NCBI GenBank assembly: GCA_965215505.1
Contig: OZ244065.1
Location: 4,800,001-4,864,000, forward strand
DNA: 64,000 bases
Reading direction: 5' to 3'
Source: Capsulimonadaceae bacterium
GTDB lineage: Bacteria > Armatimonadota > Armatimonadia > Armatimonadales > Capsulimonadaceae
Position numbers and translations under genes: made by a program. The notes below the pieces were generated by a model. The model made no database searches. It was not told the origin of the DNA and saw only the letters and a list, made by a program, of their open reading frames with translations. Every line of letters begins with the position of its first letter. Within the stretch, counting starts at the first letter, position 1. Of this stretch, positions 5,363-25,972 are shown piece by piece.

Positions 5363-7822
5363 ATGACATTCACATCAACACTCCGCGCCTGGCTCGCCCC
5401 CGCCCTGCTGGCCGCCGCTGCGACCGCCGCCCACGCCGCGCCGGGGCAGCTCACCGTCCAGGTGGACAAGCCCGGCGTCAAGATCAGCCCCACCTTCTTC
5501 GGCCTGATGACCGAGGAGATCAACCACGCCTACGACGGCGGCCTGTACGGCGAGCTGATCCAGAACCGCGCCCTCAAGGACGACCCGAACGGCCCCGCCC
5601 ACTGGTCCGCCGTTACCAGCGGCGGCGGGACGGGCACGGTGGCCCTGGACACCGCAAACCCCATCGCCGGGACCGCGCTGACCAACTGCCTGCGGCTGGA
5701 CATCACCGCCGCCACGGCGGGCCAGCACGTCGGCGCGGCCAACGAAGGCTATTGGGGCATCCCCGTCAAGCCGAACACCACTTACCGCGCTTCCTTCTAC
5801 GCCAAAGCCGGCCCGGCCTTCACCGGCCCGCTGACCGTGGACATCCAGAGTGCCGACGGCGCGGACGTCCGCGCCACCGCCCAGGTGCCCGCGCTGACCG
5901 CCGACTGGAAGCAGTACACCGTCACGCTCTCCACGGGTGCCGCCGCCCCCTCCACGGCGAACCGCTTCGTCATCTCGGCGAGCGGCGCGGGCACGGTCTG
6001 GCTGTCTCAGGTTTCGCTCATGCCGCCGACCTTCCACGACCGGCCCAACGGCAACCGCATCGACCTGATGCAGAAGATGGGCGACATGCAGCCCGCCTTC
6101 CTGCGCCTGCCCGGCGGCAACTACCTGGAAGGCAACACTCTCGCCGAGCGGTTCGAGTGGAAGGACACGATCGGACCCGTCGCCCAGCGGCCCAGTCATC
6201 AAGGGCCGTGGGGCTACCGCTCCACCGACGGGATGGGCCTGCTGGAGATGCTGGAGTGGTGCGAGGACCTCAAAATGCAGCCCGTCCTGGCCGTCTTCGC
6301 CGGGTACGCCCTGCGCGGCGACCACGTCGCCCCCGGCCCCGACCTGACCCCCTATGTGCAGGACGCCCTGGACGAGATCGAGTATGTGACCGGCGACGCC
6401 AGCACCACCTGGGGCGCGCGCCGCATCAAGGACGGCCACCCGGCCCCGTTCCCCCTCACCTATGTGGAGGTCGGCAACGAGGACAACTTCGACCGCTCGG
6501 GCAGCTACAGCGGCCGGTACGCCCAGTTCTATGACGCCATCAAGGCCAAGTACCCGAAATTGCAGATCATCGCCACCGCCCGCGTCCAGGGCCACACGAT
6601 GGACGTGCTGGACGACCACTACTACCGCTCGGCGGCGGAGATGGCGCGGGACGCGGGCCACTACGACAAGACCGACCGGAACGGCCCCAAGATCTTCGTC
6701 GGCGAGTGGGCCTCCACCGAGGGCAGCCCGACCCCGACCATGCAGGCCGCCTTGGGCGATGCCGCCTGGATGACCGGCATGGAGCGCAACTCGGACGTCA
6801 TCGTCCTGGAGTCCTACGCGCCCCTCCTCGTCAACGTCAACCCCGGCGCGCGCCAGTGGGGGACCAACCTCATCGGCTATGACGCACTCAGCAGCTTCGG
6901 CTCGCCGTCCTACTATGTGCAGAAGATGTTCGGCACCAACCGGGGCGACACCGTCCTGCCCGTCACCCTCGTCCCGCAGGGCGGGGACGCGCCGGTCGCC
7001 GCCCCGCTGCCCACGGGCAGGATCGGCGTCGCCACCTGGGCCACGCAGGCCGAGTTCAAAGACATCCAGGTGACGCAGGGCGGCAAGACGCTCTACTCCA
7101 AGGACTTCACCTCGGGGGACGCCGACTGGGCCTTCCGCCAGGGCACCTGGGTCGCCGCCGACGGCGTCCTGCGGCAGACCGGCACCCTGACCAACTCGCG
7201 GGCCACGGCGGGCGATGCGGCCTGGACCGACTACACCTACCACGTCCAGGCCCGCAAGCTCGGCGGCGATGAGGGCTTCCTGATCGCCTTCCACTTCCAG
7301 AACGCCAACAACTACCTCTGGTGGAACATCGGCGGCTGGGGCAACACCCGCACCGCCATCCAGCAGTTCCGGAACGGCACCAACACCCAGCTCGGCCCCG
7401 ACTTCCCCGTGACGGTCGAGCCGAACCGCTGGTACGACATCAAGGTCGAGCTTCAGGGTCGGCAAATCCGCTGCTTCCTGGACGGCAAGCTGGTCGAGGA
7501 GGTGACCGACACGCCCCCCGCCCCGCCCGCCCCGCTCTACGCCGTCGCCAGCCGCGACACGAGATCGGGCGACGTCATCCTGAAAGTGGTCAACACCTCC
7601 CCCGCCGTCCAGCAGATCCAAATAGACCTGCAAGGGGCGCGCGGCATCGCGAAGACCGCCACGGCTGTGGTCCTGGCCGGCGACCCCGCCGACGTGAACT
7701 CGCTCGACGCGCCCGAAAAAGTCGCCCCGCAGACGACGACAGTGACCGGCGTCGGCGCGACCTTCCTCCACGAGTTCCCCGCCCACTCCGTCACCGTGCT
7801 GCGGGTGAAGGCGCGGAAGTAG
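5363..7822 (+). CDS. Secreted GH51 alpha-L-arabinofuranosidase with an extra beta-sandwich insert
   Basis: Signal peptide ending AHA; EEINHAYDGGLYGELIQNR, LRLPGGN, EVGNE, FVGEWA and ESYAPLL motifs. Confidence 0.93.
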   Translation: MTFTSTLRAWLAPALLAAAATAAHAAPGQLTVQVDKPGVKISPTFFGLMTEEINHAYDGGLYGELIQNRALKDDPNGPAHWSAVTSGGGTGTVALDTANPIAGTALTNCLRLDITAATAGQHVGAANEGYWGIPVKPNTTYRASFYAKAGPAFTGPLTVDIQSADGADVRATAQVPALTADWKQYTVTLSTGAAAPSTANRFVISASGAGTVWLSQVSLMPPTFHDRPNGNRIDLMQKMGDMQPAFLRLPGGNYLEGNTLAERFEWKDTIGPVAQRPSHQGPWGYRSTDGMGLLEMLEWCEDLKMQPVLAVFAGYALRGDHVAPGPDLTPYVQDALDEIEYVTGDASTTWGARRIKDGHPAPFPLTYVEVGNEDNFDRSGSYSGRYAQFYDAIKAKYPKLQIIATARVQGHTMDVLDDHYYRSAAEMARDAGHYDKTDRNGPKIFVGEWASTEGSPTPTMQAALGDAAWMTGMERNSDVIVLESYAPLLVNVNPGARQWGTNLIGYDALSSFGSPSYYVQKMFGTNRGDTVLPVTLVPQGGDAPVAAPLPTGRIGVATWATQAEFKDIQVTQGGKTLYSKDFTSGDADWAFRQGTWVAADGVLRQTGTLTNSRATAGDAAWTDYTYHVQARKLGGDEGFLIAFHFQNANNYLWWNIGGWGNTRTAIQQFRNGTNTQLGPDFPVTVEPNRWYDIKVELQGRQIRCFLDGKLVEEVTDTPPAPPAPLYAVASRDTRSGDVILKVVNTSPAVQQIQIDLQGARGIAKTATAVVLAGDPADVNSLDAPEKVAPQTTTVTGVGATFLHEFPAHSVTVLRVKARK

Positions 7823-19849: not shown

Positions 19850-19910
19850 ATGCTAGAAAATTAGCATTTTCCTTGACATCCTGCTCCCAATGTGCTAAAT
19901 TATTAGCATG
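19850..19910 (+). promoter_or_regulatory. blaI promoter with two TGCTA-N6-TAGCA operator palindromes
   Basis: Boxes at 19851-19866 and 19893-19908; TTGACA at 19873-19878, 17-bp spacer, extended -10 TGcTAAATT (hexamer 19896-19901). Confidence 0.85.
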
Positions 19911-20294
19911 GCTACCGACACCGCCCTCAGCCGCCGCGAGCGGCAGATCATGGACATCATCTACCAGCAGGAGAAGGCGACCGCCGCCGACGTGCTGGCC
20001 GCCCTGCCCGACCCGCCCTCCTACTCCTCCGTGCGCGCTTTACTCGGCGTCCTGGAGTCGAAGGGCCACCTGCGGCACGTCAAGGACGGCGCGCGTTACG
20101 TCTACTCGCCCGTCCGGTCCCGACGTGGGGCGGCCAAGTCCGCCTTGCAGCAGGTCATGCAGACCTTCTTCGCCGGCTCGGTCGAGCGGACCGTCGCCAC
20201 CCTCCTGTCCGCCTCCGACGCGCCGCTGTCCGAGGAAGAATGCGAGCGCCTGTCGGCGCTCATTGACCGGGCGAAAGAAGGGGGCAAGAAATGA
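19908..20294 (+). CDS. BlaI/MecI/CopY family transcriptional repressor
   Basis: LSRRERQIMDIIY, YSSVRALLGVLESKG, YVYSP, FFAGS. Confidence 0.95.
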   Translation: MATDTALSRRERQIMDIIYQQEKATAADVLAALPDPPSYSSVRALLGVLESKGHLRHVKDGARYVYSPVRSRRGAAKSALQQVMQTFFAGSVERTVATLLSASDAPLSEEECERLSALIDRAKEGGKK

Positions 20295-22111
20295 GTGAAG
20301 TGCCTCCAGTCCTGACGTGGCTCCCCGTGCTGGGCAGCCTCGCTTTGAAAAGCCTGATCCTGTTCCTTGTCGCGGGCGCGGCCCTGCTCGCCCTGCGGCG
20401 GGCGTCCGCCTCGGCGCGGCACCTCGTCTGCCTCCTGGCGCTGGTGGGCCTGCTGGCCCTGCCTCTCCTGTCTCTGGCCCTGCCGGGCTGGCGGCTTGCG
20501 GTGCTGGCCCCGCCTGCCGCGCCGCCCGCACCCGCCGTGCCGTCTGTCGTTACGGTGCCGGTGCTTGTCCCTACGGAGACGGGAGCGCCGACGAAGGTGG
20601 TCCCCTTCGTGCCCCCGTCCGCCCGGCTCGCCCCCCTCCTGGCCCTGCCGACGCCCGCCCCTGCCCCGCGTCCCTTCCCCTGGCTGATCGCCCTGGCCGC
20701 CCTCTGGCTCGGCGGCGTCCTGATTGCCGTCCTGCGGCCCCTCCTCGGCCTGTGGGGTATCGCGCGGCTCTCCCAGGCCAGCGCCGCAGTCACAGACGCA
20801 TCCATCCTGGCCCAAGCCGCCGAATGCGCGTCCGCCCTTGGCATCAGCCAGGCACCCGCCTTGCGTCAGGCCGATGCCTCCGTCCCGATGACTTGGGGCT
20901 GGCATCGCCCCGTCGTCCTGCTGCCTGCCGAGGCGCGGGACTGGCCCGAGGGCCGCCTGCGAGCCGTCCTGCTGCACGAGCTGGCCCACGTCCGGCGGCG
21001 CGACTGGCTCTCCCACCGGCTGGCCGATGTCGTCTGCGCCCTCTACTGGTTCCACCCGCTCGCCTGGCTCACCGCCCGTCGCCTCAAAATGGAGAGCGAG
21101 ATCGCCTGTGACGACCTCGTCCTGACCTCCGGCGTCGCCGCCCCGGACTACGCCCGGCACCTGCTGGACGTCGCCCGCGCCCTGCGCCCCGCCCCCGCCC
21201 TCGTTCCCACCGCCGCCATCGCCATGGCGCGCACCGCCCGCATCGAAGGGAGACTGACCATGATCCTGGACACCACCCGCCCCCGCCGCGCCCTGACGCG
21301 CCGCGCCCTGCTGACGGTCCTCAGCCTCAGCGCCGCCGCCCTCGTCCCGCTCGCCGTCCTGCGGCTTGAAGCACGGGCACAGGCCGCGCCCGGCGTCATC
21401 CCCGCCCGGCACCTCACGACGCTCCATGTGACCACTGCCACCCCCACGATGGTTGCGGCAGGCGTCATGCCCATCCAGTTGGCGCGAGTCTACACTGACC
21501 TATGGGAACTTCACGGCCTCAGCCGTCGCCGTGTCCAGTTTGCCTTCCGGCTACCTGCTGCCGCGCGGGATGTCACGGTCAAGTATGCGCTGACCGGCAG
21601 CCTGTATTCTTCTTCGGACGGCACTTGGCCCTCGAAGATGCAGGGCACCAGCGGGCAGACAGAGGCACAGCTTAACGCCCAGACCGGCGGGGCGCGCATC
21701 GTGACTGCGACCTTCCCCTCGTCCGTCTCCAAGACCAATGTCCGCGTCAGCACCGCCTCCGGTCACTGGGAAAAGGAAGCCGCCGCCGCCCCGACCCGCT
21801 ACACCGGCTCCAGCGTCACGACCAGTCGCGGCACGTTCATCTTCAGCCCGGTGACGCCGGAAAAAGGCAACATCTGGGGGGTGACGATCACGACCGGCCA
21901 GCCGAAGGAAGACGTCCGCATCGTGGCTATAGACGCGCGCGGCCATGAACTGCTGCCCTCCACCATCGGCGATACGACCGCAGGCGGCCTGGACCAGATC
22001 ACCGCACGGTTCGCCGGTCTGCCCCTGCCGCAGATCAAGGAGTTCCGCGTGGAATCCCGCCCATTCCACTCCGTCGAGTTCAAAAACGTCGCCTTGCGGC
22101 CCGCGAAGTAG
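20291..22111 (+). CDS. M56 family (BlaR1-like) membrane metallopeptidase with a non-penicillin-binding extracellular domain
   Basis: ATGA-coupled to blaI; TM segments; PMTWG, LLHELAHVRRRD, YWFHPLAW, ESEIACDD; then MARTARIEGRLTMILD, a final TM and a beta-rich C-terminal domain. Confidence 0.93.
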   Translation: MSEVPPVLTWLPVLGSLALKSLILFLVAGAALLALRRASASARHLVCLLALVGLLALPLLSLALPGWRLAVLAPPAAPPAPAVPSVVTVPVLVPTETGAPTKVVPFVPPSARLAPLLALPTPAPAPRPFPWLIALAALWLGGVLIAVLRPLLGLWGIARLSQASAAVTDASILAQAAECASALGISQAPALRQADASVPMTWGWHRPVVLLPAEARDWPEGRLRAVLLHELAHVRRRDWLSHRLADVVCALYWFHPLAWLTARRLKMESEIACDDLVLTSGVAAPDYARHLLDVARALRPAPALVPTAAIAMARTARIEGRLTMILDTTRPRRALTRRALLTVLSLSAAALVPLAVLRLEARAQAAPGVIPARHLTTLHVTTATPTMVAAGVMPIQLARVYTDLWELHGLSRRRVQFAFRLPAAARDVTVKYALTGSLYSSSDGTWPSKMQGTSGQTEAQLNAQTGGARIVTATFPSSVSKTNVRVSTASGHWEKEAAAAPTRYTGSSVTTSRGTFIFSPVTPEKGNIWGVTITTGQPKEDVRIVAIDARGHELLPSTIGDTTAGGLDQITARFAGLPLPQIKEFRVESRPFHSVEFKNVALRPAK

Positions 22112-22148
22112 CCCTGCCCCATCAGGGAGCAGAGGCAGGAGACAGGCC

Positions 22149-23111
22149 ATGAAGCGCAAGCCGTATGAACTCGCCCTCTGGGTGGCCCTGCCGATGGCCC
22201 ACACGCCCCGCATCGAAGGAAGGCTACGAATGATCCTCGACGCTGGCCGCCCGCGCCGGACACTGACGCGGCGCGCTCTGCTCGTGTCGCTGGCCGCCGC
22301 GCTCGGGTGCGGAGTGCTGGCCACTTTGGAGCCTGGGAGGCGGGCGCAGGCGGCAGGCACCCCAACCCCGTGGAAGCAGACACTGGCGAACGGGATGACC
22401 GTCGAAGTTCTGGGCGTCTCAGACGCGCCGACGCGACAGCGGGGCGGCTGGTGGAGGCCGGACGGGTCGCCGCTGGCGGGGGCACCATTCGGACGGTATC
22501 TGGAGTCTCCAATCACGGGGCAGGACCGACGGGCTTTCGCCATGCGTGTCCTGCCGTCCCCAAGCGGCCCGCAGTGGGGCTTTCCCATTTATGAGGTCGC
22601 AGGGGCTGCTCTGGTGCGGACCAGTTCCTGGGTGATGATGTCCGATTCGACAAGGATGGTGGGCCTTGATATCGTTTCGGCGGGCGCCGACGCACTGCCG
22701 TCGCCAGGCACACTGCGCTGCGGTGTCGCGGCGGGGACGTGGGAGACGCTGAAATCCGCCAACGTCTCCATCCTCCCGGCGGGGGGCGGGTTCACCTTCC
22801 ATGGACACGCCGGCAGTGTTGTCTTCTCACGTCTGAGTCAGACGCGCGGGAGTGCCATGGTGACTATGAGTGACACTTTCCCGAACGGAGAAGGGGTGTC
22901 CCGAGTTGCGGCGCTGGATGCCTCAGGGAAGACTGTCGAAGGCGATTCCGATGGTGGGGCGGAGACCGGGGCGATGCGCCAGACCGTCATCGTCTTCAGG
23001 GGTATGCCATTAAGCCGCATCAAAGAGGTCCGCTTCCAGGCGCTGCCCTATCAGTGGGCGGAGTTCCGGGGGATCGCCCTGAAGCCGGGTGGCAGTGTGG
23101 CACACCGATGA
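22149..23111 (+). CDS. Membrane or secreted protein made of an M56 post-protease helix and TM plus a domain paralogous to the M56 extracellular domain
   Basis: AGGAG RBS; starts MKRKPYELALWVALPMAHTPRIEGRLRMILDAGRPRRTLTRRALL; ends MPLSRIKEVRFQALPYQWAEFRGIALKP versus LPLPQIKEFRVESRPFHSVEFKNVALRP in the M56 protein. Confidence 0.85.
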   Translation: MKRKPYELALWVALPMAHTPRIEGRLRMILDAGRPRRTLTRRALLVSLAAALGCGVLATLEPGRRAQAAGTPTPWKQTLANGMTVEVLGVSDAPTRQRGGWWRPDGSPLAGAPFGRYLESPITGQDRRAFAMRVLPSPSGPQWGFPIYEVAGAALVRTSSWVMMSDSTRMVGLDIVSAGADALPSPGTLRCGVAAGTWETLKSANVSILPAGGGFTFHGHAGSVVFSRLSQTRGSAMVTMSDTFPNGEGVSRVAALDASGKTVEGDSDGGAETGAMRQTVIVFRGMPLSRIKEVRFQALPYQWAEFRGIALKPGGSVAHR

Positions 23112-24661
23112 GAGTCCCATTACACACGAAAGAAAGACTCGACATGCTCTCGACCGAAACCCGACGCCGCCTGCTCCCGCTCCTCGCGCTCGCCCCGCTG
23201 GCCTGCCTCTCCGGCATGGCCGGCGTGAAGGCGGACCCGGCCCGCCACCCCGCCAAGGAAGACACCTACACCATCACTTCAGTTCTGCGGGTGCTGCCGC
23301 CCGTGGACCCCGCCGCCATGAGCGACGACTTCCAGGACGTGCGCGTTCTGGCCCGAGACAAAGCCTCGGCTACGGTGGAAGTGACCTACTACCCGCTCTA
23401 CCAGCAGCCCGTCGGCGAGGACCCCGACTGGCGCAAGGACGACGCGGGCATGACCGCCTTCCTCCAGCCGACGCCCGCCGAGAACTGGGACGCCGCCATG
23501 CGCCGTGACCTGCTGGCACAGCTCAAGCAGGACGGCATTGACCCGGACGCCCTAACCGACAAGGCCCTCGTCGAGCGGGTCTCCCGCTGGGCCATGCACC
23601 GGGCACATGAGGCGAGCGCCTTCACGGTTTGGGACGTCTATTACCCGGACGGCAAGCCTACCGTTTTCCCCGCCCTGCGCGCGGCCTTCGACCAGCAGAA
23701 GCCCGCCCCGACCTGGACCGACCAGCAGATGTTCGACCAGGAGGCCCTGGGCAAATCCATGTTTTACAACAAGGTCCACGGCTCCTGCACGTCGTCCTCG
23801 ATCTATTTGACCACCATCTTCCGCGCCCTGGGCATCCCCACCCGCACCGTCCTGTGCATCCCGCCGTTCGACCCGAACGACGGCGCGCAGGCGTCCAAAT
23901 TCTACGCGGCCGTCCACGACAACGCCGTGCGCGAAACCGTCCGCGCCGCCCTGGACGGAATGGGAGGCTTCGCCAACCACCTGTTCAACGAGGTCTACGT
24001 CGGCCACCACTGGGTGCGCCTCAACTACGACCGGCTGGGCCAGCCGATCTTGGACCCCGACTATTTCGGCCTGCTGACGCACATCGCGACGAGCGCCGAC
24101 CTGAGCAAGACGCCGCTGGCGCAGACCTGGGGGCTGCGTTATGCTGAGGACGCGCCGGACCAGCCCAAGCTCTCCTCGGTCAACCCGTACATGCTGCTCT
24201 CCGTCAGCGACCACTTCGGCGCGAACGCCCACCTGGACAATCCCGCCGTCCCCATCGCCGAGCTACGGACGGCCACGATCACCGGGCTGCTGCCGAAAAC
24301 CTCGCCTGCCCTGCCCAAGTGGGTCGCAGACGACACCCCCAAAGACAGCGCGTTCGACTTCTTCATCGTCTACAAGGAATGGGTGCCCGGCTCCTACATG
24401 CAGATGCGCGCGTTCGGCAAGCGGGCCGCTCACGATTTCTTACTGACCGCGCCGGGCCGGCGGGATGTCAAGGTGCGGCTGAACGGCACGATGGACAGCG
24501 ATGGTGCCGGCACCTTCCAAGCTTTCGGGGCGCGCATCATGCCCGAAGACAAGGCGAAACTCGTTCCCGGCGTCGCCTACACGCTCACGCCGCAGAACAC
24601 CAGCGACACCTACCGCTGGGCCGTCACGCCCGGCGTGACTCTGACACTGCCCGCCAAATAG
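23108..24661 (+). CDS. Exported transglutaminase-like (cysteine protease fold) protein
   Basis: ATGA-coupled start (alternative ATG at 23144); hydrophobic N-terminus; GSCTSSSIYLTTIFRALGIPTR and NHLFNEVYVGHHWVRLN match the transglutaminase-like Cys and His motifs. Confidence 0.8.
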   Translation: MRVPLHTKERLDMLSTETRRRLLPLLALAPLACLSGMAGVKADPARHPAKEDTYTITSVLRVLPPVDPAAMSDDFQDVRVLARDKASATVEVTYYPLYQQPVGEDPDWRKDDAGMTAFLQPTPAENWDAAMRRDLLAQLKQDGIDPDALTDKALVERVSRWAMHRAHEASAFTVWDVYYPDGKPTVFPALRAAFDQQKPAPTWTDQQMFDQEALGKSMFYNKVHGSCTSSSIYLTTIFRALGIPTRTVLCIPPFDPNDGAQASKFYAAVHDNAVRETVRAALDGMGGFANHLFNEVYVGHHWVRLNYDRLGQPILDPDYFGLLTHIATSADLSKTPLAQTWGLRYAEDAPDQPKLSSVNPYMLLSVSDHFGANAHLDNPAVPIAELRTATITGLLPKTSPALPKWVADDTPKDSAFDFFIVYKEWVPGSYMQMRAFGKRAAHDFLLTAPGRRDVKVRLNGTMDSDGAGTFQAFGARIMPEDKAKLVPGVAYTLTPQNTSDTYRWAVTPGVTLTLPAK

Positions 24662-24688
24662 CCGGAGCCGGGCACGGAAAGGCCGACC

Positions 24689-25972
24689 ATGACACACAAA
24701 CTGACGCCTTTGGACCTCGCGCTGTGGGCCGCCCTGCCGATGGCCCACACTTCGCGCATCGAAGGGAGGCTCCAAATGATCCTGGACCGCACCCGCCCGC
24801 GACGCGCCTTGACGCGCCGGTTCCTGCTGACTGCGCTCGGCCTCGGGGCCGCCGCCCTCGTCCCGCTGGCGATGCTGCGGCCCGCCGCACGGGCGCAGGC
24901 CGCTGACACGCCGCTTAAGCATCACATGACCAGGGCCACGACGCGGGTGTCGGCGGTCAGTGCCGTCCCCGGCGAGTTCGACGCCATGCAGCTTGTCGCC
25001 GAGGGGCGGTCACTCACGCCCCGCGCGGCGGCGGATTTGGAGCGGGCACTGACGCTGCACCCGGACGATTACGCCGCCCACATCCGGCTCCTCGGCTATT
25101 ACGGGAGGCAGCAGTACGAGCCAGGTTTCGGGAGAGCGGCTTACCAAAGGCAGGTGTTCTGGTTCATCCAGAACCACCCGGAGTCGGTGCTGGCGGGGAC
25201 GCCCAACATGGGGCTGACCAGGAGCATCGACGCGGCTGCCTTTGAAGAGGGGAAGACGCTCTGGCTGGCGCAGATTTCCAAACAGCCGACCAACACCGCC
25301 CTCCTCGGCAAAGCCGCCGACTACTGCCTGCTCTCCGATAACCAAGCGGCGGAACGGCTGCTGCGGCAGGCGGAAGCCCTGGAACCGAAAGACGCGCAAT
25401 GGCCCGACAAGCTGGGCCACCTCTATCACTTGCAGGGAGAGGCGCGAACCGCATCCGCCGGTGACAGCCGCCTCTGGGCACAGAAAGCACTCGCCGAGTT
25501 CGAAGCCGCCGCCGAGGTCTCGACGAACAAAACGCTCCAGCACAGCACATCAGCCGATCTCGCGGTGACGGCCTTCGACGCGGGCGACTATGACAAGGCC
25601 CACCGCTACGCCGCCGACTTGTTGCTGCGCGGCCAGAACAAAGAAGGTCAGAGCCTTGACCCGAGCGACGATCTGCATCACGCCAACCTGATCCTGGGCC
25701 TTCTGGCCCTGCGCGACGGTGACACCGCCGGGGCGGAAGCGCATTTGCTGGCGATGGGCCGCGTCTCCGGCTCGCCGGTTCTAGGCTCGTTCGGCCCCAA
25801 CATGCGGCTCGCCCAGGAGTTGCTGAAAGCGGGGAGACGCGAGGCCGTGCTGGCCTACTTCGATGAGTGCGCTAAATTCTGGGCGTTCGACCGTGGGGCG
25901 AAGCTGAAGCAATGGAAATCGCAAGTCAAGAAGGGCGAAGTGCCTGACTTCGGCGGCAACCTCGTCTACTGA
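24689..25972 (+). CDS. Protein made of an M56 post-protease helix and TM plus an alpha-helical TPR-like domain
   Basis: Starts MTHKLTPLDLALWAALPMAHTSRIEGRLQMILDRTRPRRALTRRFLL...ARAQA; helical repeats such as AERLLRQAEALEP and FDAGDYDKA. Confidence 0.85.
   Translation: MTHKLTPLDLALWAALPMAHTSRIEGRLQMILDRTRPRRALTRRFLLTALGLGAAALVPLAMLRPAARAQAADTPLKHHMTRATTRVSAVSAVPGEFDAMQLVAEGRSLTPRAAADLERALTLHPDDYAAHIRLLGYYGRQQYEPGFGRAAYQRQVFWFIQNHPESVLAGTPNMGLTRSIDAAAFEEGKTLWLAQISKQPTNTALLGKAADYCLLSDNQAAERLLRQAEALEPKDAQWPDKLGHLYHLQGEARTASAGDSRLWAQKALAEFEAAAEVSTNKTLQHSTSADLAVTAFDAGDYDKAHRYAADLLLRGQNKEGQSLDPSDDLHHANLILGLLALRDGDTAGAEAHLLAMGRVSGSPVLGSFGPNMRLAQELLKAGRREAVLAYFDECAKFWAFDRGAKLKQWKSQVKKGEVPDFGGNLVY

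Follow-up and report, generated by a model that had tools for sequence, protein, structure and literature searches.

The window analysed here, a 64-kb stretch of DNA, contains a tightly packed run of genes, all on the + strand, in the order blaI, M56, orf1, a transglutaminase-like gene, and orf2. The blaI product (19908–20294, +; 128 aa) is a repressor of the BlaI/MecI/CopY family that matches the winged-helix Penicillinase_R family in Pfam (PF03965, E = 6e-28, aa 7–120). The ATG of the next gene overlaps the blaI stop codon as ATGA, and its product, M56 (20291–22111, +; 606 aa), is a full-length BlaR1-like membrane metalloprotease whose Pfam match to PF05569 (E = 7e-29) covers aa 129–325 and reaches profile position 296 of 296. 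M56 combines this domain with an HExxH motif (HELAH, aa 229–233) and a downstream ExxxD, as expected of a peptidase of this family, and residues H229, E230, H233, D238, E270, and D274 are invariant in a 10-sequence alignment.

The genes orf1 (22149–23111, +; 320 aa), with AGGAGA located 8 nt before its ATG, and orf2 (24689–25972, +; 427 aa) encode free-standing back halves that consist of a module shared with M56 followed by an outer domain. Neither contains an HExxH motif or matches PF05569 at E ≤ 0.1, and neither is classed as an M56 peptidase. In the stored annotation, orf2 begins 29 residues downstream of its proper start, a gene-calling error that hides the conserved module. Between these genes lies the transglutaminase-like gene (23108–24661, +), whose ATG overlaps the orf1 stop codon as ATGA and whose product is a predicted exported protein that matches Transglut_core (PF01841, E = 3e-7). 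Because no homolog of this gene was found among 12 related genome loci, we place it outside the conserved cassette and reject it as part of the system.

A consensus scan places a sigma-70-like promoter at 19873–19901 (+; TTGACA, 17 nt, TAAATT; 10 of 12 consensus matches), with a predicted −10 element that ends 7 nt upstream of the blaI ATG. The promoter lies between, and overlaps, two candidate BlaI-type operator dyads of the form TGCTA-N6-TAGCA, at 19851–19866 and 19893–19908 (+), the second of which overlaps part of the −10 element and ends on the first letter of the blaI ATG. These are the only two matches to the motif in the window, against 0.04 expected by chance. Twin dyads also precede blaI in eight of the 12 related genome loci, the other four being cut there, as well as in loci L025, L026, and L027. 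Predicted palindromic operators in the promoter of the repressor's own gene are characteristic of BlaI/MecI/CopY repressors, and the motif search finds no separate dyad before orf1 or orf2, which sit inside the predicted BlaI-controlled operon. The best explanation for the operon is an autoregulated BlaI/BlaR1-type system of an Armatimonadota bacterium, in which a membrane protease cuts its repressor. The nearest related loci carry the labels Capsulimonadaceae or Armatimonadales, and the host is a soil-type bacterium.

This repressor–protease switch belongs to the type with which Staphylococcus senses penicillin. BlaR1/MecR1 signaling is the textbook route to inducible β-lactam resistance, and BlaR1 systems have been described as two-protein systems. 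Our operon shares with Staphylococcus aureus BlaR1/BlaI and MecR1/MecI (8EXP–8EXT, PMC9834060) a repressor of the BlaI family whose own promoter carries operator dyads, together with an M56 gluzincin that has HExxH and ExxxD motifs. It also has a loop–helix–last-helix segment in which a bulky hydrophobic residue and an arginine are spaced much as in BlaR1, and its last helix is followed by a site of AxA type, at the place where signal peptidase cuts BlaR1 (PMC9834060). Unlike BlaR1, however, it has no penicillin-binding sensor domain: Pfam finds no such domain (class D β-lactamase-like, SxxK) in M56, orf1, or orf2, none of which qualifies as a β-lactam sensor-transducer (BlaR1 sensu stricto). 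The outer domains are of β-sandwich or TPR type instead, and such operons carry one to four additional genes for nothing more than the portion that BlaR1 protomers swap in their dimer.

As the first-pass annotation had noted, the outer domains of the two free proteins differ. That of orf1 is paralogous to the β-rich outer domain that M56 carries in place of a penicillin-binding domain (phmmer E about 7e-13). The orf1 protein has no family match in Pfam, and an AF2 model (mean pLDDT 80) predicts an all-β, two-part or tandem β-sandwich. A Foldseek search of the PDB with this domain returned only weak Ig-like matches (best 3fbq, E = 9e-4, TM 0.22) and no ligand clue. The only Pfam matches of orf2 are to TPR.

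A module shared with the M56 protease and its proposed mapping onto BlaR1

Both free proteins open with a module of ≈70 aa (orf1 aa 1–69, 22149–22355, +; orf2 aa 1–72, 24689–24904, +) that is homologous to residues 309–366 of M56 (21215–21388, +), as seen by alignment and tblastn. In M56, the module is composed of a loop (AAIAMARTA), a helix (RIEGRLTMILD), a basic stretch, the last membrane helix, and ARAQA, and the three-way alignment reveals an invariant block, A..MA.T.RIEGRL.MILD..RPRR.LTRR.LL...RAQAA. In a tblastn search of the whole 6.18-Mb genome, M56 and orf2 match with 78% identity over 59 aa (E = 2e-21) and M56 and orf1 with 60% identity over 58 aa (E = 1e-11). These results bear out the earlier proposal that two downstream genes with starts of their own open with an M56 segment and lack any protease domain; of PF05569 they share just the final ≈20 positions of the profile, together with the membrane helix. 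The genome has eight M56 paralogs, and since the remaining significant matches all fall in the same region of four other M56 paralogs, tblastn detects no further free copies in the genome at E ≤ 10.

The free genes were also thought to share a leader that is not present in M56. This is true of the first ≈10 residues (K.TP.D/E.A), which are specific to free genes, but not of the A-A-L-P-M sequence, which aligns with A-A-I-A-M of M56; the Trp and Pro of the leader occur in 17 and 26, respectively, of 70 full-length M56 relatives. Three positions of the module are nearly or fully fixed in free and full-length proteins alike: Met18 (112/113 free, 68/70 M56), Glu25 (111/113 and 67/70), and Arg27 (113/113 and 70/70). 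Proline precedes the methionine in 109 of 113 free proteins versus 26 of 70 full-length M56 proteins, and given its presence in the latter, we dropped the idea that it makes the free loop uncleavable. The most conserved part of the free proteins is the stretch of ≈30 residues, predicted to be cytoplasmic, before the twin arginine.

The local PDB match between M56 and S. aureus BlaR1 (8EXS/8EXP; E = 4e-5) is confined to M56 aa 192–280, within which the residue numbers of HExxH and E270xxxD274 each exceed those of H201, E202, H205, E242, and D246 of BlaR1 by 28. Because the phmmer and 10-sequence profile alignments to BlaR1 both end at M56 residue 280 (BlaR1 252), our mapping of the loop relies on spacing and conserved residues. 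The same offset would place M312 of M56 on F284, the P1' residue of the BlaR1 scissile bond S283|F284 (PMC9834060), and R321 on R293, next to R294. M312 lies 38 residues after D274 and 9 residues before R321, and M18 and R27 of the free halves are also 9 residues apart. The module thus appears to keep the BlaR1-like spacing, in which the P1' residue, bulky and hydrophobic, comes 38 positions after the aspartate of ExxxD and is followed 9–10 residues later by an arginine.

The domain-swapped dimer of BlaR1 was first seen only in 2023. The swap occurs between helices α8 and α9; Arg294' bridges Asp246 of the other chain, with α9 acting on the partner protease domain in trans, and the extracellular loop EL1 binds the sensor domain of the neighboring protomer, likewise in trans (PMC9834060). 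We infer that the module corresponds to the autocleavage loop of BlaR1, to the swapped helix α9, which bears the active-site arginine, to the last membrane helix, and to the AxA site. The first-pass annotation had described orf1 and orf2 as ready-made post-cleavage fragments. Both proteins, however, start ≈17 residues before the residue aligned with P1', that is, before the predicted scissile bond, and for this reason they are, by this mapping, intact back halves with the whole loop rather than post-cleavage fragments.

Conservation, linkage, and exchange of the free halves

Of the 61 matches found with orf2 aa 1–75, 59 lack PF05569, and close homologs of orf2 are 60–87% identical in the first 75 aa. 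A profile search against 1.84 billion representatives returned 1170 matches at E ≤ 1e-3 and 90 at E ≤ 1e-10. Among 192 stored proteins, ≈118 (99 + 11 + 8) carry the module at the N terminus without HExxH, 69 are full M56 proteins, and five are fragments. The free genes all start at the same position, each with its own start codon and ribosome-binding site, and the leader is conserved across about 100 proteins.

This conserved family of proteins, which the earlier annotation had suggested seeking behind blaI–M56 pairs, was indeed found directly behind them in every intact informative locus (21/21 over genomes and metagenomes). M56 lies immediately upstream on the same strand in all 11 genome loci with upstream DNA, with blaI visible in 10, and the free half directly follows blaI–M56 in 10 of 10 intact informative metagenome loci. 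Nine other genomes of the same genus, a set that overlaps with the genome loci just counted, have free halves; in eight of them an M56-type match is no more than about 1.6 kb away, and in the ninth the free half is at a contig end. Operons of this genus have one or two free halves, and that of L025 has four. Most of the free halves found to have the full leader come from a single genus; within the phylum, a match of any kind to the module occurs in 29 of 301 genomes, in most cases via M56 itself.

Over 40 codons, dN/dS is 0.34–0.37 at dS values of 0.53–0.90 (Nei–Gojobori), which indicates that the free halves are under purifying selection and are not decaying copies. Taken together, selection (dN/dS about 0.35), the conserved family, and its linkage therefore rule out a set of decaying duplicates unique to this genome, the outcome on which the initial interpretation was to fall. 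A last conceivable form of that view, that free halves are non-functional remnants of tandem M56 duplications without their 5' halves, can point to the tandem full-length M56 genes of L027 and to one locus sampled twice (L043/L044) that holds a decayed remnant without a protease. It is contradicted by the selection data, the conserved leader and synteny, and the uniform, individually equipped start sites, and we consider it hardly credible.

The same outer-domain subtypes occur fused to the protease and free. P0060 and P0116 have an orf1-type outer domain fused to M56, whereas the type found on the window M56 is free in P0077, P0012, and P0034; the M56 of L012 carries an outer-domain type found free in L005, L010, and L011. 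Two loci have a split protease. In L028, M56 is 294 aa long (Pfam positions 82–250 of 296), and its stop codon overlaps, as ATGA, the start codon of the next gene, whose product has the module at its N terminus. In L026, a 306-aa M56 (Pfam positions 6–275 of 296) is followed by two free halves; this split follows a palindromic insertion and could reflect a recently broken gene. The protease gene in both loci stops before or within the module, leaving the free half as the only source of α9, the last helix, and the sensor. These exchanges and splits lend evolutionary support to the earlier idea of several interchangeable sensors on one protease; its physical counterpart, docking, draws on a weak structure prediction discussed below. 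In a poorly resolved module tree of 63 columns, from which three partial rows of 30 module matches were left out, fused and free labels are clustered (three changes versus 9.2 in shuffles; 0/500 as low), and monophyly of the free halves, that is, a single origin, is neither shown nor rejected (p-AU 0.096).

Proposed docking of the free halves and alternative roles

We propose that orf1 and orf2 are single-pass membrane proteins with a cytoplasmic N terminus of about 40 residues that would reproduce the BlaR1 autocleavage loop, with the invariant methionine at P1', and helix α9, with the invariant glutamate and arginine. This arginine would be the one that completes the active site of the neighboring protomer in BlaR1. 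Beyond this N terminus would come a basic stretch next to the membrane, then the last membrane helix, a signal-peptidase-like site of AxA type, and an outer domain that varies between proteins. The free genes would begin at what is the domain-swap hinge in the BlaR1 dimer, and their products may dock on the M56 core in place of the swapped part of a second protomer. We place them in the swapped position because BlaR1 α9 acts in trans and the BlaR1 sensor binds EL1 of its partner (PMC9834060). Docking might link further outer domains to a single protease–repressor pair, with an effect on BlaI cleavage that could be either activating or inhibitory.

A predicted complex of M56 aa 1–375 with Zn and orf2 aa 1–80 scored an ipSAE of 0.54 (runs 0.54, 0.52, and 0.55), compared with 0.00 for the best of three controls; the runs share at least 86% of contacts, with a partner pLDDT of at least 68. 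In calibration, 58 of 80 solved complexes and two of 110 mismatched pairs reached the mark, but at scores ≤0.60 only seven of the 80 solved complexes passed, and both passing mismatches fell there. Because the BlaR1 dimer has already been solved, the pass may reflect likeness only. The prediction thus hints, weakly, that the back half docks on the M56 protease domain.

Several points weigh against docking: the window M56 has its own complete back half and needs no free half to complete it, the BlaR1 autocleavage loop acts in cis, leaving a free loop in trans without precedent, and full-leader free halves are mainly from one genus. The poorly resolved tree, the decayed L043/L044 remnant, the possible recent breakage in L026, and the end of the BlaR1 sequence alignment short of the loop count against it as well. 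On balance, we lean modestly toward the view that free halves dock as swapped parts and couple extra outer domains to one M56. The broader proposition, that BlaR1-type receptors are modular at the domain-swap hinge, with one core accepting back halves from separate genes, a repressor integrating several signals, and sensors moving by fission and fusion, is put forward tentatively, as a possibility a little short of probable.

The free halves might instead be pseudosubstrate decoys, made only on derepression, whose intact loop would fill the M56 active site and so halt BlaI cleavage again. Their place in a BlaI-controlled operon without a dyad of their own, the complete loop with its P1' methionine, and the frequent preceding proline all suit such a role, as does the steric incompatibility of an occupied BlaR1 active site with BlaI cleavage (PMC9834060). 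A decoy, however, has no need of large, diverse, conserved outer domains, the proline also recurs in full M56 proteins, and in split genomes the free half is the sole source of α9, the last helix, and the sensor; we regard this role as unlikely. Alternatively, M56 may cut the loop of the free proteins, altering their stability or releasing them, which would make them targets rather than inputs. BlaR1 cleaves the equivalent bond (PMC9834060), and the residues around the predicted scissile bond are conserved, including those upstream on the P side. Such a cut would nevertheless take off no more than about 17 residues on the cytoplasmic side, the proteins have no obvious output function, and M56 itself uses the same outer domains as its sensor, which together make this reading quite unlikely. 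The module could also be an N-terminal extension plus a Sec/Tat-like signal peptide on co-regulated periplasmic products that never contact M56. The twin arginine (TRRxLL), hydrophobic core, and AxA motif of the free N termini fit this role, and the last helix of BlaR1 is itself processed by signal peptidase (PMC9834060). Yet all of these features also surround the last helix of fused M56, where it is internal, and a signal peptide does not need the best-conserved ≈30 residues before the twin arginine. We therefore consider simple export improbable.

If the docking reading is correct, separate and exchangeable swapped parts would establish that protease core and sensor half are able to function as individual subunits, and such operons would offer a genetic system for studying how the loop and α9 control the active site. 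The extra sensor-half genes suggest that one protease can work with several plug-in sensors, which would explain how the very large and mostly uncharacterized M56 family gains new sensing domains. Like type II membrane sensors processed by regulated proteolysis, among them single-pass anti-sigma factors, the free halves have a short cytoplasmic N terminus, one membrane helix, and a variable outer domain. The homology of their cytoplasmic part, however, is with the M56 loop and α9 rather than with an anti-sigma domain, and inspection of the ORF list by eye revealed no evident sigma-factor gene around the operon. We found no description of trans-encoded back halves in the literature searched, which included one loosely word-matched search. 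The short M56 proteins of L026 and L028 are reminiscent of sensor-less BlaR-like M56 proteins that have a BlaI-type partner and no outer sensor, such as Mycobacterium BlaR and Pseudomonas aeruginosa PvmS (bioRxiv 10.64898/2026.08.03.742534). The accessible part of that report mentions no trans-encoded back half for those proteins, whereas in L026 and L028 the adjacent gene or genes supply the missing part.

Operon layout and putative promoter

Five closely spaced genes, all on the plus strand, occupy positions 19850-25972 of the window. The stop codon of the first, blaI (19908-20294; Penicillinase_R, Pfam E 6e-28), overlaps the start of the M56 gene as ATGA, and the M56 product (20291-22111) matches Peptidase_M56 over aa 129-325, up to the final profile position (Pfam, E 7e-29); both are ordinary members of their families. 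After 37 nt, with AGGAGA 8 nt 5' of its ATG, comes orf1 (22149-23111), which has no Pfam match and whose stop codon overlaps, also as ATGA, the start of a transglutaminase-like gene (23108-24661, start most likely 23108; Transglut_core in Pfam). A further 27 nt separate this gene from orf2 (24689-25972), for which TPR is the only Pfam match. Neither orf1 nor orf2 encodes an M56 peptidase; their products consist of an N-terminal module shared with the M56 protein and an outer domain, and we term them free halves. Pfam finds no penicillin-binding domain in the operon proteins, none of which is therefore a beta-lactam sensor.

Two matches to the dyad TGCTA-N6-TAGCA (19851-19866 and 19893-19908, plus strand) flank a putative promoter, TTGACA-17-TAAATT, upstream of blaI. 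These are the only matches in the 64-kb window, where 0.04 would be expected by chance, and none precedes orf1 or orf2. The same pair of dyads precedes blaI in 8 of 12 related genome loci (the remaining four end at that point) and in L025, L026, and L027, three further related loci. The gene overlaps, together with the lack of a dyad before orf1 or orf2, suggest a single BlaI-controlled transcript. The -10 element ends 7 nt 5' of the blaI ATG and dyad 2 covers the first base of the start codon (19893-19910), so close that the blaI mRNA may be leaderless or nearly so. The transglutaminase-like product is an exported protein encoded between the two free halves and translationally coupled to orf1; since none of the 12 related genome loci holds a homologue, its gene has probably been inserted into the operon in this lineage only.

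The shared segment and its probable counterpart in BlaR1

The M56, orf1, and orf2 proteins have in common the invariant block A..MA.T.RIEGRL.MILD..RPRR.LTRR.LL, followed in the alignment by a hydrophobic helix and RAQAA. When the three segments were compared with the whole 6.18-Mb genome by tblastn, M56 matched orf2 at 78% over 59 aa and orf1 at 60% over 58 aa, bearing out the first-pass annotation in its description of a shared segment; the only further matches fell in the corresponding part of four more M56 paralogues. With eight M56 genes, whose open frames range from 614 to 1456 aa, the genome seems to rely heavily on this type of signalling; free copies occur only in the operon of the window. 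The DNA of the three segments shows many synonymous differences, with dN/dS of 0.34-0.37 at dS of 0.53-0.90 (Nei-Gojobori, 40 aligned codons). The segments are old copies maintained by selection and not the product of recent gene conversion. Over the 11-codon leader, orf1 and orf2 differ by 4.0 synonymous and 4.0 non-synonymous changes (pS 0.43, pN 0.17). This leader had been described as absent from the M56 protein, which is right only in part, since its AALPM aligns with AAIAM of M56; the leader-position Trp is found in 17/70 and the Pro in 26/70 full-length M56 relatives.

HELAH at residues 229-233 of M56 pairs with H201-E202-x-x-H205 of Staphylococcus aureus BlaR1 (8EXS/8EXP, local match), and the 10 M56 orthologues that were aligned all have H229, E230, H233, D238, E270, D274, M312, and R321. 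E270xxxD274 lies at the same offset, 28, from BlaR1 E242/D246, and this offset puts M312 on F284 and R321 on R293, which adjoins R294. According to PMC9834060, BlaR1 cleaves itself between S283 and F284, within a loop (271-289) that leads from alpha8 into alpha9, the helix that is swapped; the swap is located between these two helices, Arg294 from the other protomer bridges the active-site Asp246, and signal peptidase cuts between G331 and Q332, directly past the last helix. The sequence alignment to BlaR1 (local match; 10-sequence profile) stops short of the loop, and it is from spacing and conserved residues that we infer the shared segment to comprise the autocleavage loop, alpha9 with its Arg, a basic stretch, the last helix, and an AxA site. 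The orf1 and orf2 proteins begin 15 and 17 residues upstream of the Met. They start at the swap hinge with the loop intact, and so are not the ready-made post-cleavage fragments proposed in the first-pass annotation.

Distribution and outer domains of the free halves

A search with orf2 residues 1-75 (E<=1e-3) returned 61 proteins of 250-648 aa, with PF05569 missing in 59 and present in 2; over the first ~75 residues these proteins share 60-87% identity with orf2, and their C-terminal parts diverge. Profile A4, built from window and locus DNA only and searched against 1.84 billion representatives, returned 1170 proteins at E<=1e-3, of which 90 reached E<=1e-10. Among the 192 proteins stored from both searches, 99 carry the full leader at the N-terminus and lack HExxH, 11 form a second class whose leader is shorter or different (..L.L.ALPMAQ.SQ.EGRL), 69 are full M56 proteins, and 5 are fragments; the start of the remaining 8 is annotated at an internal MILD. 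Met18, Ala19, Glu25, and Arg27 are each conserved in 111 or more of the 113 free proteins and in 67 or more of the 70 M56 proteins. The orf2 database entry P0053 (398 aa) and the near-identical P0056 start at MILD, the late start seen in eight database proteins; the 29 conserved residues upstream of MILD (window 24689-24775) place the true orf2 start at 24689.

A pattern scan of species-representative genomes yielded 12 loci in Armatimonadota MAGs, one of which, labelled Janthinobacterium, is probably a binning error. The free gene lies directly behind M56 on the same strand in 11/11 genome loci with upstream DNA, 10 of which also show blaI. From metagenomes, a scan yielded 18 loci, two with M56 only and 16 with a free-type module, on contigs that mostly carry a common accession prefix and may stem from one campaign. 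M56 precedes the free gene in all 10 of the 16 that are intact and informative, two of which (L039 and L040) look identical; blaI is also seen in nine, L032 ending upstream. Four of the 16 are uninformative contig starts, and L043 and L044, which have the same sequence, hold a decayed remnant with outer-domain pieces and no protease. The clustering of free halves behind blaI/M56 pairs, for which the first-pass annotation had suggested a test, is found well beyond the window. The remnant (L043 5540-6706) comprises an M56-type outer-domain piece, a 68-aa free-half remnant that lacks the membrane helix, and a second piece of outer domain; an unrelated opposite-strand gene occupies the expected protease position.

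Across the phylum, 29 of 301 genomes match the module, mostly via M56 itself, as do 10 of 11 in the window's own genus. Nine genomes of this genus besides that of the window, overlapping with the 12 genome loci, have free halves; in eight these lie no more than about 1.6 kb from an M56-type match, and in the ninth they are at a contig end. L025, a genome from another genus of the family, combines blaI and M56 with four second-class free halves. L027 (3410-8777) has one blaI followed by two full-length M56 genes in tandem, the kind of duplication that could give rise to free halves.

By C-terminal part, 115 free proteins divide into one large cluster of beta type (78), a TPR cluster (25), and some small groups; ankyrin repeats, CarboxypepD_reg/Ig-like domains, and DUF2092 also occur. 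P0060 and P0116 carry the orf1 outer subtype as part of an M56 protein, the outer subtype of the window's M56 occurs free in the database proteins P0077, P0012, and P0034, and the outer type on the M56 of L012 is found free in L005, L010, and L011. Outer domains thus exchange between fused and free forms. The AlphaFold2 model of orf1 (mean pLDDT 80; 36 sequences) has low-confidence N-terminal helices (6-12, 20-30, and 37-59), and its outer part (76-309) is modelled with confidence as all-beta, with only weak Ig-like matches to known structures in Foldseek.

Two genomes have a protease gene without a back half. In L028, from the same order, the M56 gene encodes 294 aa (Pfam positions 82-250 of 296), and its TGA overlaps the ATG of the next gene, upstream of which lies GGGAGGAAAG; the downstream gene encodes a leader, the loop-like LTLALES, LEARVRSILD, a membrane helix, and an Ig-like domain. 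Unless an assembly frameshift has intervened, this would be a clean split. In L026, from another family, the M56 gene encodes 306 aa (positions 6-275 of 296, ending ...SQVEGR-stop) and is followed by a long palindrome and two free halves; the truncation may be a recent break. The palindrome (5663-5842, between the truncated M56 and the first free half) is perfect, with about 25 nt per arm, and looks like an inserted hairpin element. A single open frame in L010 (10794-12881) encodes a complete free half, then an in-frame second partial module from IEGR, a further membrane helix, and a third domain; two free halves may have fused here, or a stop codon may have been lost. The first free gene of L007 (8748-9791) has a degenerate module, membrane helix only, and its outer part bears VVPFVSPP..LAPLL.LP, which is also found in the window's M56 (aa ~103-122) and P0060, in the loop between membrane helices two and three, the position of the BlaR1 EL1 loop.

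A proposed model for docking in trans

Among known systems, BlaR1/BlaI and MecR1/MecI come closest, together with the BlaR-like proteins of mycobacteria and Pseudomonas aeruginosa PvmS, which lack a sensor (bioRxiv 10.64898/2026.08.03.742534). We found no report of trans-encoded back halves in the literature, supplements aside. In BlaR1 (PMC9834060), alpha9 and the sensor domain both work across protomers: alpha9 acts on the protease domain of the partner, and the sensor domain binds its EL1 loop. By analogy, a free half, with loop, alpha9, last helix, and sensor, would have the parts needed to engage the M56 core in trans. We propose that it docks at the site of the second protomer's swapped part, which would provide several outer domains for one protease/repressor pair. 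A predicted complex of orf2 aa 1-80 with M56 aa 1-375 plus Zn weakly supports this docking (ipSAE 0.54; runs 0.54, 0.52, and 0.55; best of three controls 0.00), with at least 86% of contacts in common between runs and partner pLDDT of at least 68. In calibration, 58/80 solved complexes and 2/110 mismatched pairs reached the mark; among those that did, just 7 of the 80 solved complexes scored 0.60 or under, as did both passing mismatches. As the BlaR1 dimer is already solved, the score may reflect mere likeness to it.

The free halves might serve as activators of M56, as its cleavage substrates, or as inhibitors, the last in keeping with the block on BlaI cleavage that active-site occupation imposes in BlaR1. 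The segment could instead be a simple export signal and the proteins exported cargo, given that TRRxLL, the hydrophobic core, and AxA look like a signal peptide. The same features, however, are common to the fused M56 proteins, and the AxA agrees with the known signal-peptidase site past the last helix of BlaR1, so this resemblance does not argue for cargo.
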